From Omnitrophica bacterium GWA2_41_15 (GTDB lineage Bacteria; Omnitrophota; Gorgyraeia; Ghiorseimicrobiales; Ghiorseimicrobiaceae), in NCBI GenBank assembly GCA_919902105.1, contig CAKKQO010000004.1:4180-58431 (forward strand): a DNA stretch of 54,252 bases. The letters run 5' to 3'. A program made the position numbers and the translations under genes. The notes beneath the pieces were generated by a model that saw only the letters and a program-made list of their open reading frames with translations, did not search any database and was not told where the DNA came from. This document shows positions 26,142 through 29,778 of the stretch, one piece after another (the stretch's first letter is position 1; each line of letters begins with the position of its first letter).

Positions 26142-26176
26142 TTATAATCATTATACTGTCGCCTTTGCCGTATAAA

Positions 26177-26207
26177 CAAAAAAGCCGGACAATTAAGTCC
26201 GGCTTTT
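26177..26207 (-). terminator. bidirectional intrinsic terminator after the Met-rich membrane protein gene
   Basis: AGCCGGAC-aattaa-GTCCGGCT flanked by A-run and T-run. Confidence 0.7.
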
Positions 26208-26232
26208 ATAGTTCAACTATTAGGATAAGCTA

Positions 26233-26457
26233 TTATTTAGCCGCAGGCATTTCTGTGCCGCTAACCGGGCATTCCATTGCACCCTTGCCGCCCATCATCC
26301 CGCTCATTGCGCCCTTGCCGCTTTTCCAGCATAAATGTTTCTTGCTCATATATAAGTGTTTGCAAGCCACTCCGACAAGCAAGACTATCGCAATAATAGT
26401 CAGTAAGATATTGGTGTATTTAAGAGAAGACAAAATTCCCTTTTCTTCATTCGCCAT
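26233..26457 (-). CDS. small membrane protein with Met/Gly-rich C-terminal tail (74 aa)
   Basis: GAGGAGG 5 nt upstream of the ATG at 26457; one TM; tail GKGAMSGMMGGKGAMECPVSGTEMP. Confidence 0.5.
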   Translation of the reverse strand: MANEEKGILSSLKYTNILLTIIAIVLLVGVACKHLYMSKKHLCWKSGKGAMSGMMGGKGAMECPVSGTEMPAAK

Positions 26458-26572
26458 ACCCACCTCCTCAATCCCGCGAGTAGCGGAAAAATTTAAAGCC
26501 GATTTATTTCTTAATGCGTATTGTACCTTAATATTGCTTATCTCGCAAGTAAAATTATGGTATGCTTATAAT

Positions 26573-27471
26573 ATGGACGCCTGCCAAAAAGAATTTAACC
26601 GCCTTAAAAGAATAAAGATATTGGTGGCTAAAAATTTTTCTCATTTCGGGCTGAACAAAAAACAGGAAATCAAGCGCCTCATTTATGAAATCTCCAAACG
26701 CGACAACTTAAACCCGGCTAAGGTTATCCGCGGCGCTCAAACAGGGGAATTTAACAGGATAAAAGAATATCTTATAAGCCGCCGTTTTCCTTATGCATAT
26801 GCTCATCGCGAAATCTCAAAAATTTACCTGCCCAGCATCGAACTTGCGGCTCTCGACGCCTTTAATCCTCCGAAGAACAAGTTTTATCCTAAAAAAATCT
26901 TTATAGAAAGACAAGTTAAAGGCTCTTATTTAGCCAAACGTTTTAAAAACGCTTTCCCAAAGGCAGATTTTTGCCAAATTTCGACGCTAAAAGATTACCT
27001 CAAGCCAGAAAAAAGATACGACACTGTAGATTATAACGCGCGGCGTGACACGGTTTTTAATGTGCGCAAGCAGGATATCGGATAGGGTTTCATTTTGACC
27101 CGGTGTTTTATTTTCCCGCCACTAATACTTCGGCGGGATGGAAGAAAGAATACGCTCAGGTTATCGAGAACCTTTTTGCTCACGTTAAGCCGCGTTCTCT
27201 TGCCTGGATAAGTATCGACACCTTTCGCTTTAAGCCGGAATTAAAAAAGATCATTGAGGCGCGTTTTCCGCAAAATAGAATTTTAGACGAAGAACTGCTT
27301 CTCGGCTACGACAATAAATTAAGATACCCTGATAGCCTAAGATACGATATTTATAAATTCCTTATTGAAACTATGAAAAAACACGCCAAGCAATTACCAA
27401 TTTACCTCTGTATGGAAGAAAAAGCTGTCTGGCAAAGACTTAACCTACGTTTCCCATTCTATATAAGATAG
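26573..27471 (+). pseudogene. spore-photoproduct-lyase-family radical SAM gene with internal deletion of the CX3CX2C core and a frameshift
   Basis: Frame 1 ends ...YNARRDTVFNVRKQDIG* (compare B. subtilis SplB YRNAKSTLVIGVRK). Frame 2 opens at 27061 as CAQAGYRIGFHFDPVFY...GWKKEY...LAWISIDTFRFKPELKKIIEARFP (compare SplB AKAGYPLGF...EGWEEGY). About 170 aa between the two are missing. Confidence 0.65.
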
Positions 27472-28316
27472 CCCGCGATTAGGGTAAAGCTGACAAAAAG
27501 ATAGATAATTAATGTGTTGCGGATGGTGGGGATAAATTGCGTTGCCTTATCGTAGGTTTTTCTTGCTTTTAGAGCGGTGTAGACAGCGAAAGGAAAGATA
27601 AGGAAAACCAAGATAGAGAATATCGGGATTAGTTTTAGGGCAAAAGCAATTGCCAGCATAAGGAAACTAAGAAAAATCACTGCCTGATAAAGTATAATCG
27701 CGCGCTGCTTGCCTAATCTGACCACCAGGTTTTTTTTACCAACCAGCCCATCCTGATAATAATCCGGAATTTCATTAACCAACGCCAAGGCGAGTATCAA
27801 GAAACCAAAAATTAAGGAAACTAAAAATGGCCCCAGGCCGATTCGTTGCGCCTGGACATAATAACTGCCTAAAACCATTAAAGGGCCGTAGGCAAAAAAT
27901 ATGGCGAACTCACCAAAACCGCGATAAGCCAATCTTAGTGGCGGGCCGACATAGAAGCAGGCGGCGATAAATCCCAAAATGGCAAATACGGCAATGCTTA
28001 AGCCGATTTTTAGGCTAAGGTATCCGGCAATAATCCCCGCTAAAATAAAAGCTAAACACCCCAGGTAAAATATATAATCAGGGATATTTTCTTTATCCTC
28101 GAGAAAAACCCTATCCGAGCCAAGCCGGGCATCAAAATACTCATTAAACGTTTCTACGCCTACCAATGATAAGGCAATCCCGATAAATGCTACGGCAAAG
28201 TAGTAAAAATTAAATGTCTTATGCGCGGAGAAAGACATGCTTGCGCCAAGAAAAAAAGGCAGGATTCCCGCAAACAGAAAAAACCGATAGCGCAGGAGCC
28301 GAAAAAAAGAAAACAT
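27459..28316 (-). CDS. UbiA-superfamily aromatic prenyltransferase, MenA-like
   Basis: NEYFDARLGSD and DYYQDGLVGKKNLVVRLG motifs (compare E. coli MenA NDYGDAVKGSD); 8-9 TM helices. Confidence 0.75.
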   Translation of the reverse strand: MFSFFRLLRYRFFLFAGILPFFLGASMSFSAHKTFNFYYFAVAFIGIALSLVGVETFNEYFDARLGSDRVFLEDKENIPDYIFYLGCLAFILAGIIAGYLSLKIGLSIAVFAILGFIAACFYVGPPLRLAYRGFGEFAIFFAYGPLMVLGSYYVQAQRIGLGPFLVSLIFGFLILALALVNEIPDYYQDGLVGKKNLVVRLGKQRAIILYQAVIFLSFLMLAIAFALKLIPIFSILVFLIFPFAVYTALKARKTYDKATQFIPTIRNTLIIYLFVSFTLIAGYLI

Positions 28317-28322
28317 TTAAGG

Positions 28323-29312
28323 TTAGATATCTAATTCTATCCAGGTATTGGATTGGGCCAAGAGGGTATGGTCTTTGATGACTTTTTGCGTAAATTCAAG
28401 CACATCTCTCCTCTTCCAGGCCTGTTTATAGCGCTGCCAAATTTCTTTTAAAGAGTGTTTTCTTAAATCTCCGCATAGATAGGGAAGCGGTCCGATAAGT
28501 TTTACTTTGCCGTTGGGGATGATTAAGAGACTGGCCGAAGGATTATACATGCGGTATTTTAATTCTTCCACGACATCATAAGGATAATAATATACCTTCA
28601 TCTTGCCTTTATACTCTGCTTCTTTTTTCTGCAAAACATTAAAAAAATCTTCGTAATCTTTCTCGCTTGGTGCGAGTTTATCCCAATTTTTAGCGGCTCT
28701 GCCGATGCGCATAATCTTTCCGGTGTAAAAGCCGTATACGCCCAAAGAGGCGGCGAGGTCGATCATTTGGGAGGTTTCTTTTAGGTTAAATTTTGTAGGT
28801 ACAAAGACTATCTCAGTATTTATTCCTCTTTTTACCAAGCGTTTTACCGCATCTATTGCTTTCTGCCAGTCTCCTTTTATACGCATTGCTTCATGCGTTT
28901 TGGGGGTTACGCCGTCTATACTTATCTGCACAGAGCGGAAACCGAACTCTTTAAACTTGTCTGCTGTTTTTTCATCAATGAAGTGGCCGTTGGTCTCTAC
29001 TTTGAGGCTTATTCCGTTATCGGTAATTACTTTAGCCGCATCAAAGAAATACGGACAAAGCATGGGCTCGCCGCCGGAAATCGCCGCGTAAGGAATATCC
29101 ATCTCAGTAATCTGACGGCATAAATCTAAGGCTTCATCTTTGGTTAATTCATTAGGCATTTGATACCCCGCCTCTTCACAGCAGTGCAGGCAGTCTAAAT
29201 TACAGAGGGAATTTATCTGCCAGGCGATAAATAAAGGGGAAGATAAATCTTCGATGTCAACCGAAGACGGCCTTACGTCTTGCTCTAAGAGGGAAACTTC
29301 TTTTACTTTCAT
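28323..29312 (-). CDS. radical SAM enzyme of the PqqE/NirJ/MoaA class, without SPASM auxiliary-cluster cysteines
   Basis: CNLDCLHC (CX3CX2C), SGGEP, ETNG motifs; only one Cys (YLCGDL) after the core. Confidence 0.8.
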   Translation of the reverse strand: MKVKEVSLLEQDVRPSSVDIEDLSSPLFIAWQINSLCNLDCLHCCEEAGYQMPNELTKDEALDLCRQITEMDIPYAAISGGEPMLCPYFFDAAKVITDNGISLKVETNGHFIDEKTADKFKEFGFRSVQISIDGVTPKTHEAMRIKGDWQKAIDAVKRLVKRGINTEIVFVPTKFNLKETSQMIDLAASLGVYGFYTGKIMRIGRAAKNWDKLAPSEKDYEDFFNVLQKKEAEYKGKMKVYYYPYDVVEELKYRMYNPSASLLIIPNGKVKLIGPLPYLCGDLRKHSLKEIWQRYKQAWKRRDVLEFTQKVIKDHTLLAQSNTWIELDI

Positions 29313-29314
29313 TG

Positions 29315-29563
29315 TTATTTAACAACTTTTAAGTTTTCTAATTCTTGCAGAAATTCTGAAACTTCTTTTTCAATAGTTTCAGCATCAGAGCGATAATTCT
29401 CTTCTAAGTCGTCAATGATTTCTTCTTTGCTCTTGCCTTGTTTAATTAAGTTTAAAATCTCGCCTGCGGTTTCATTAGTTACATAGACCTTTTCTTTTAG
29501 CGTATCAAAAACCACAGAGCCAAACTTCTCATTACGCAACTTTACAAATTCAGCAAATTGCAT
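29315..29563 (-). CDS. PqqD-family peptide chaperone (RiPP recognition element)
   Basis: 82 aa; VTNETAGEILNLIKQGKSKEEIIDDLEENY...EKEVSEFLQEL parallels PqqD LNETAAAILELVDG...DVVEFL. Confidence 0.8.
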   Translation of the reverse strand: MQFAEFVKLRNEKFGSVVFDTLKEKVYVTNETAGEILNLIKQGKSKEEIIDDLEENYRSDAETIEKEVSEFLQELENLKVVK

Positions 29564-29616: not shown

Positions 29617-29778
29617 TTAAGTAAATCTTATGTATGGCTGGGCCATTATCTTTCCGGATACATCCTCCAGGCATGGTTTTTGCCACTTTTTTTTGCTTAA
29701 CTCTGGATGGTGTTTCTCCGAAGCCCGCATATGCCTGCTCGCAAGCGGTTCCTCTTTATTAATTTCTCTTGTCTGCAT
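29617..29778 (-). CDS. PqqA-like precursor peptide candidate (53 aa)
   Basis: GGAGGAG SD before the ATG at 29778; the C-terminal WQKPCLEDVSGKIMAQPYIRFT aligns gaplessly with PqqA WKKPAFIDLRLGLEVTLYISNR. Confidence 0.55.
   Translation of the reverse strand: MQTREINKEEPLASRHMRASEKHHPELSKKKWQKPCLEDVSGKIMAQPYIRFT

Follow-up and report, generated by a model that had tools for sequence, protein, structure and literature searches.

The radical SAM protein encoded at positions 28323..29312 (minus strand) of the window, the whole stretch of 54,252 nucleotides analysed here, is probably best explained as a full-length, predicted catalytically competent enzyme with a single [4Fe-4S] cluster, which descends from SPASM/twitch peptide maturases, has kept their C-terminal fold while losing the ligands of the auxiliary clusters, and acts on a peptide in the manner proposed below. 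To our knowledge, radical SAM maturases that depend on an RRE or PqqD partner almost always carry a SPASM/twitch domain. The gene is part of a cassette encoding a peptide, a PqqD protein, the radical SAM enzyme (in one to three paralogous copies) and a MenA-like UbiA protein; this cassette was recovered at about 70 of the 80 loci, from more than 10 phyla, that were kept out of 96 found when each species was represented by a single genome.

The open reading frame encodes a PqqE-like protein of 329 aa, which we annotate from PF04055 and an AF2 model as a predicted single-cluster peptide maturase. Its core contains the motifs CNLDCLHC (29181..29204, minus strand), in which C37, C41 and C44 form the CX3CX2C radical SAM cluster motif and are followed by C45, SGGEP (residues 79-83) and ETNG (residues 106-109), and the Pfam Radical_SAM model PF04055 scores 92.4 bits (threshold 29.5), which places the protein in the radical SAM superfamily. 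C37, C41 and C44 are invariant among 134 aligned sequences, as are G80-G81-E82 and T107-N108-G109 in the homologue alignment. From these core motifs an earlier note on this DNA had assigned the protein to the PqqE/NirJ/MoaA class, and NCBIfam, PDB sequence and fold matches indeed put it near PqqE, MftC, AhbD and SkfB. No NCBIfam equivalog model reached its cut-off, the best scores being those of AhbD (TIGR04545; 131 versus 500 bits), MftC (TIGR03962; 124 versus 265 bits), NirJ2 (TIGR04055; 117 versus 500 bits) and PqqE (TIGR02109; 77.4 versus 381 bits), and the neighbours of the protein in the ESM Atlas are clusters of 'hypothetical protein'.

Alignment, hhalign and superposition on SkfB identify residues 255-329 (28326..28550, minus strand) as a SPASM/twitch remnant consisting of a beta-hairpin and three helices. 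The canonical cysteine pattern of SPASM domains is CX9-15GX4C ... CX2CX5CX3C ... C, with twitch domains comprising the first half and three to four cysteines. These ligands are absent from the window protein: beyond residue 86, its only cysteine is C280 (in PYLCGDL; codon at 28473..28475, minus strand), 49 aa from the protein end, and the Pfam SPASM model PF13186 scores 14.7 bits over residues 259-297, below its threshold of 21.5. In an alignment of 54 sequences, which includes SPASM-bearing relatives and also served as input for the AF2 model, the cysteine column of 'CxAG' falls on the P258/S259 region and that of the 'DGxVxPC' hairpin on Ile273, so that structure prediction and alignment, the check proposed in the earlier note, have located the lost ligand columns; a segment of about 33 aa (CX2CX5CX3C...C) is deleted and two helices are found in its stead, which agrees with the note's report that the block after the core is missing. 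When the last 75 residues were compared with SPASM-bearing relatives by hhalign, residues 260-293 aligned with the hairpin (probability 95.5%, E 1.4e-8) and C280 was placed beside a conserved G-[DN]-L, away from any ligand column. The note had seen in C280 a lone cysteine within a SPASM-like hairpin. Judged by these profiles, the stretch around C280 is indeed homologous to the first SPASM beta-hairpin, but the cysteine lies off the canonical ligand position and is not a relic ligand.

The AF2 model is confident up to the last residues (pLDDT 94.6, pTM 0.90) and contains, past the core, beta strands at residues 261-264, 269-271 and 278-282 and helices at residues 288-298, 302-313 and 315-320. 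It superposes on SkfB (6efn) with a Z score of 29.9 and an rmsd of 2.5 A over 277 residues (model residues 16-321; Foldseek E 2e-19), and further fold matches include SuiB (Z 25.9), PqqE (6c8v; Z 24.7), viperins (Z about 24), BlsE (Z 23.4), anSME, MoaA and DesII (Z about 22) and EpeE (Z 20). A hairpin followed by a helix and packed on the partial TIM barrel, as in the SPASM/twitch fold, is thus recovered by hhalign, the AF2 model and the SkfB superposition. Sequence matches in the PDB cover the core only (SkfB, E 6e-25; PqqE, E 2.5e-12), and when the C-terminal domain was searched against PDB sequences by itself, only noise was returned. As the superposition on SkfB spans the twitch region while the ligands are absent, the SPASM/twitch fold seems to have been kept and its metal sites lost.

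The absence of these cysteines extends well beyond the window. A search of 5.8 billion proteins produced 781 matches, and the best 120 of the 781, which were examined for a common loss as the note had proposed, share it: they are 61-94% identical to the window protein, measure 313-353 aa, have the same end point, all contain PF04055 and in no case PF13186, and carry 0-3 cysteines in the tail after the core. Across phyla, the identity of the enzyme is 60-69%. In a FastTree phylogeny of the cassette copies and the nearest 50%-identity cluster representatives, the cassette enzymes form a single clade that lies among Cys-poor representatives and separately from SPASM-bearing representatives (support 0.76); full-length sequences among the 150 nearest such representatives have either at most three (69 of 118) or at least seven (41 of 118) tail cysteines in most cases. 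No NCBIfam names were found for ten Cys-poor representatives, and the sister representative P0137 had no match in a metagenome scan. Because the loss is family-wide and reaches into a larger clade, it points to an old, stable design and not to a degenerate copy, and in sequence space it appears both ancient and widespread. The notion of a degenerate, cluster-less domain therefore holds for the ligand-less, SPASM/twitch-shaped tail and fails where degeneration of this particular copy was implied.

An alignment of 21 homologues shows C37, C41, C44, C45, C65 and C280 to be invariant; among the 116 cassette paralogues of the 80 loci, only C37, C41 and C44 are universal. Within these 116 copies, C45 is replaced by Ile or Leu in rSAM1 and by Phe in two second copies, position 65 is Cys, Leu or Ala, and position 86 is Cys, His or Val, while C280 is found without exception in the single-copy clade and in paralogues 1 and 2 of proteobacteria and gives way to Pro in every rSAM3. 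The gene order in Betaproteobacteria and Rhodovibrio is PqqD, rSAM1, UbiA, rSAM2, peptide, rSAM3; two tandem enzyme copies are present at some loci of Planctomycetota, Nitrospirota and Thermodesulfobacteriota, and the extra copies of all multi-copy loci belong to the same Cys-poor family. Three-paralogue cassettes (L058-L080, e.g. L072:5729-9927) encode a peptide core identical to that of single-enzyme cassettes. Their cysteine losses are complementary, C45 being gone from rSAM1 and C280 from rSAM3, with single-copy enzymes retaining both; this would fit subfunctionalisation of a multi-step ancestor.

Two explanations that would deprive the missing ligands of their meaning have to be weighed against these data. 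The window copy might be a SPASM enzyme cut short by truncation or a frameshift, or a pseudo-enzyme without activity, and its short tail is the only argument for this. Just 6 nt separate the TAA stop of the gene from the ATG of the conserved UbiA-family gene, which leaves no space for a frameshifted cysteine block, and the other reading frames 3' of the stop are the UbiA gene out of frame; in addition, the length and the end of the protein recur in more than 100 homologues spread over many phyla, its SAM-binding motifs are all conserved, and the AF2 model is confident to its last residues. The adjacent start and the same-length homologues reduce this explanation to a negligible probability, so that the frameshift named in the earlier note as a possible refutation is ruled out. 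Alternatively, a second Fe-S cluster could be bound in a non-canonical manner by C45, C65, C86 (His in many orthologues) and C280, or at a subunit interface. The window protein and its Planctomycetota orthologues have exactly four extra cysteines, and the alternation of Cys and His at position 86 is a swap typical of metal ligands. However, many orthologues and paralogues have Leu or Ala at position 65 and Val at position 86, some copies lack C45 or, as in paralogue 3, C280, and no triad is independent of the copy; moreover, the AF2 model distributes the four residues over the cluster loop (C45), helix 1 (C65), the loop after strand 2 (C86) and the C-terminal hairpin (C280), and the PqqD protein contributes no cysteine. 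We consider such a cluster highly improbable. Because no three extra ligands are shared by all copies, we regard an auxiliary cluster held by cysteines as very unlikely, and the sequences argue that the enzyme lacks a second Fe-S cluster.

The order of the cassette genes is similar at about 70 of the 80 loci, with PqqD upstream of the enzyme, UbiA downstream and a small open reading frame close by. In the window, the PqqD-family peptide chaperone (RRE; 29315..29563, minus strand; 82 aa; PF05402, 57.5 bits) is separated from the ATG of the enzyme by a 2-nt spacer and is translationally coupled to it, and the two genes adjoin at about 72 of the 80 loci; this bears out the partnership with PqqD assumed in the note, and the conserved synteny suggests that the enzyme depends on the chaperone. 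Gene co-location thus provides both a PqqD partner and a co-encoded precursor, the two marks of an RRE (PqqD)-dependent RiPP maturase. The precursor peptide (29617..29778, minus strand) has no match in Pfam or NCBIfam; its last 22 aa, WQKPCLEDVSGKIMAQPYIRFT, are PqqA-like and finish with the core VMAQPYIRFT, directly followed by the stop. The C-terminal MAQPYIRFT is identical at 74 of 75 loci, and the C-terminal pattern across loci reads W-x-x-P-x-[LFM]-x-[DE]-V-S-x-x-[VI]-M-A-Q-P-Y-I-R-F-T-stop. The sole core variant, VIAQPYIRFT with Ile for Met, was observed in a Steroidobacteraceae MAG (L074:7190-7264) and bears on the question whether the core Met takes part in the chemistry. The window peptide (29617-29685) contains a cysteine in WQKPCLEDV, at a position occupied by Lys, Thr or others in further species; given this lack of conservation, the residue probably plays no part in cluster binding.

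The fourth member of the cassette is a MenA-like membrane prenyltransferase of the UbiA family (27459..28316, minus strand; 285 aa; PF01040, 81.1 bits), which scores below the cut-offs of the MenA models and whose gene adjoins the cassette enzyme at 67 loci at least. Carriers of the cassette include Planctomycetota, Omnitrophota, Elusimicrobiota, Lentisphaerota, Aminicenantia, WOR-3, Nitrospirota, Thermodesulfobacteriota, Brocadiaceae and Acidobacteriota as well as, at about 40% identity, Betaproteobacteria (Usitatibacter, Casimicrobiaceae) and Rhodovibrio. Within the window's phylum, the enzyme family is encoded by only 2 of the 151 genomes sampled, which indicates that the cassette is patchily distributed and probably mobile between lineages. 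A bacterial-type cassette (62% identity) was also detected in a MAG labelled Hadarchaeota archaeon (L029, CAYFIY010000011.1), where the peptide gene lies past UbiA on the opposite strand; faulty binning or a transfer between domains could account for this. At an omnitrophotal locus (L020:591-2594), a polyprenyl synthase gene directly follows the enzyme, and no PqqD or UbiA match was present on the 3.6-kb contig. Our literature searches found nothing on the cassette, the peptide motif or cluster-less RiPP maturases, and the cassette is apparently undescribed in the curated families and the literature searched.

Among neighbour clusters shared by at least three of the 80 loci, genes connected with polyprenyl and electron transfer functions are frequent: a polyprenyl synthase occurs near the cassette at 16-18 loci, an NqrF-like reductase at 15, NqrD/E at 9, NqrB at 8, NqrC at 6 and a fumarate reductase/SDH flavoprotein at 6, together with a histidine kinase at 14 and a response regulator at 9 loci. 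The window genome (1.45 Mb, about 90% complete) encodes an NqrB/RnfD-like gene and a polyprenyl synthase together on another contig (G000:C81:16484-21875), about 3.5 kb apart; the synthase there appears as two adjacent matches in open frames of 232 aa and 199 aa, which may reflect a frameshift or a split gene, and similar genes flank the cassette in other genomes. The cassette UbiA gene is the sole UbiA-family gene of the window genome, in which MqnA/D were not found and neither MenB nor UbiE/MenG was detected above cut-off. In five other carrier genomes, MqnA/D were likewise not found and MenB was not above cut-off; most of these five, including the betaproteobacterium, possess further UbiA genes. 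We therefore rejected the interpretation of the cassette UbiA as the MenA of an ordinary menaquinone pathway, whose markers were not found in the six carrier genomes. Two open reading frames on the plus strand (26165-27471) converge on the window cassette, the second with a weak match to the C-terminal domain of spore photoproduct lyase (PF20903, E 0.0012), and no homologues of them were found beside the cassette at the 80 other loci. Taken together, the genomic context is compatible with a prenylated, peptide-derived membrane molecule tied to quinone-dependent respiration.

The same context bears on the possibility that the substrate is not a peptide at all, but a small molecule (e.g. a tetrapyrrole) or a lipid part; in the lipid variant, a radical would be added to, or cyclised on, a polyprenyl olefin, and no auxiliary cluster would be needed. 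AhbD and NirJ2 are among the top-scoring NCBIfam models, the window cassette gene follows and is co-directional with a cbi operon (cbiD-cbiH), UbiA adjoins and a polyprenyl synthase often does so too, and HpnH-type clusters are found among the ESM Atlas feature neighbours. Yet the AhbD and NirJ2 scores are far below the cut-offs of 500 bits, and it is NQR, SDH/fumarate reductase or two-component genes that flank the cassette elsewhere; cbi genes are absent from the neighbour clusters recurring in at least three of the 80 other loci, and we rejected a functional cbi link on this ground. PqqD and an invariant peptide accompany the enzyme at about 70 of the 80 loci. A substrate other than the peptide is thus improbable in our view.

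We prefer to regard the protein as a single-cluster maturase of SPASM/twitch descent, which probably acts on the peptide; like the modified residue, the order of steps and the dependence on PqqD, this substrate is inferred from synteny and homology. The cassette as a whole probably makes a lipid-anchored molecule from the small, almost invariant peptide. In the proposed sequence of events, the PqqD-like chaperone would bind the PqqA-like peptide at its conserved W-x-x-P-x-L-E-D-V-S stretch and hand over the invariant core VMAQPYIRFT to the enzyme, where the 5'-deoxyadenosyl radical would take a hydrogen atom from a core residue. As the enzyme has no internal electron conduit, the substrate radical would have to be resolved by addition to Tyr, by thiol quenching or by other chemistry. 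In the first case, it would add to the Tyr ring and yield a PqqE-like C-C crosslink from Met, whose C-gamma radical would be sulfur-stabilised, and the electron would return to the radical SAM cluster or pass to an external acceptor; a crosslink to Tyr is possible, although we would not yet count on it. The Ile at the position of the core Met at one locus (L074) speaks against a role of Met in the crosslink, and the analogy to AhbD, MftC, PqqE and SkfB, all of which use auxiliary clusters, argues that oxidative chemistry needs one. In the second case, the thiol of Cys280 or Cys45 would quench the radical, resulting in a redox-neutral change such as epimerisation, an outcome we judge unlikely; each of the two cysteines is lost in some paralogues, and neither can be a universal hydrogen atom donor. 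Finally, the MenA-like prenyltransferase would add a polyprenyl chain, probably on the electron-rich Tyr-derived ring, to give a membrane-anchored product.

The role of auxiliary clusters in radical SAM enzymes is still debated (PMC8326336). A large, conserved and cluster-less sister family acting on a defined peptide would be a natural control for this role and could reveal what radical chemistry on peptides an enzyme can achieve without an electron conduit of its own. The Cys-poor family is at the same time the key enzyme of a cassette that often lies beside NQR or polyprenyl synthase genes and that may serve to make a new, lipid-anchored cofactor for anaerobic respiration. At its most far-reaching, which we put forward tentatively and consider somewhat unlikely, this reading would make the cassette the source of a new class of ribosomally derived, polyprenylated redox carrier, crosslinked with the radical SAM cluster only, to which the electron would be returned, and used by NQR- or fumarate reductase-type enzymes in bacteria without menaquinone pathways; such a cluster-less oxidative crosslink would be a mechanism undocumented for RRE-dependent peptide maturases. 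Direct testing is possible, as some carriers are in culture (Rhodovibrio sodomensis DSM 9895, members of Usitatibacter and of Casimicrobiaceae).

Of the known systems, PqqE/PqqA/PqqD resembles the cassette in its separate PqqD chaperone gene upstream and in a radical SAM core of the same class. The last 22 residues of the window precursor align without gaps to what we take to be the PqqA pattern, W-x-K-P ... D-[LV] ... Y. In contrast to the E-X3-Y of PqqA, however, the peptide has M-X3-Y, with Met at the place of the crosslinking Glu; PqqE has two auxiliary clusters, whereas the SPASM cysteines are absent from the window enzyme, and the cassette has a prenyltransferase where the PQQ system has PqqB/C/F. 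The window genome, about 90% complete, gave no match for pqqB or pqqC; for pqqC this absence carries little weight, given that the PqqC control was positive in 0 of 14 control genomes. The low TIGR02109 score, the M-X3-Y peptide and the lack of a pqqB/pqqC match led us to reject a PQQ pathway. MftC and AhbD, the highest-scoring NCBIfam models over the core although far below their cut-offs, carry SPASM auxiliary clusters and catalyse oxidative decarboxylation. The cofactor mycofactocin is derived from the invariant C-terminal core of a peptide with the help of a PqqD-type chaperone, two features shared by the cassette; its precursor ends in Val-Tyr, while the window peptide ends in Arg-Phe-Thr. 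An identity with MftC was rejected on the basis of its score and this peptide end, and one with AhbD or NirJ on the basis of the scores given above.

Viperin, BlsE and DesII, which as far as is known work with the radical SAM cluster alone, are similar in fold (Z 22-24, covering part of the C-terminal extension), but act on nucleotides or sugars and have no peptide, PqqD or prenyltransferase partner. Like the enzyme proposed here, the epimerases PoyD and YydG/EpeE are peptide-modifying radical SAM enzymes, in which a conserved protein cysteine serves as hydrogen atom donor, PoyD having a single strictly conserved one (PMC8326336). The lone conserved Cys280 in the C-terminal domain of the window enzyme is reminiscent of this arrangement; unlike in these epimerases, it is replaced by Pro in paralogue 3, and the fold match to EpeE is a lower one. 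The closest match in both sequence and structure among solved proteins is SkfB, and this resemblance includes the twitch region. SkfB differs in that its RRE is fused to the N-terminus, instead of being encoded as a separate PqqD, and in that its twitch domain binds an auxiliary cluster via three cysteines (PMC8326336), all three of which are absent from the window enzyme.
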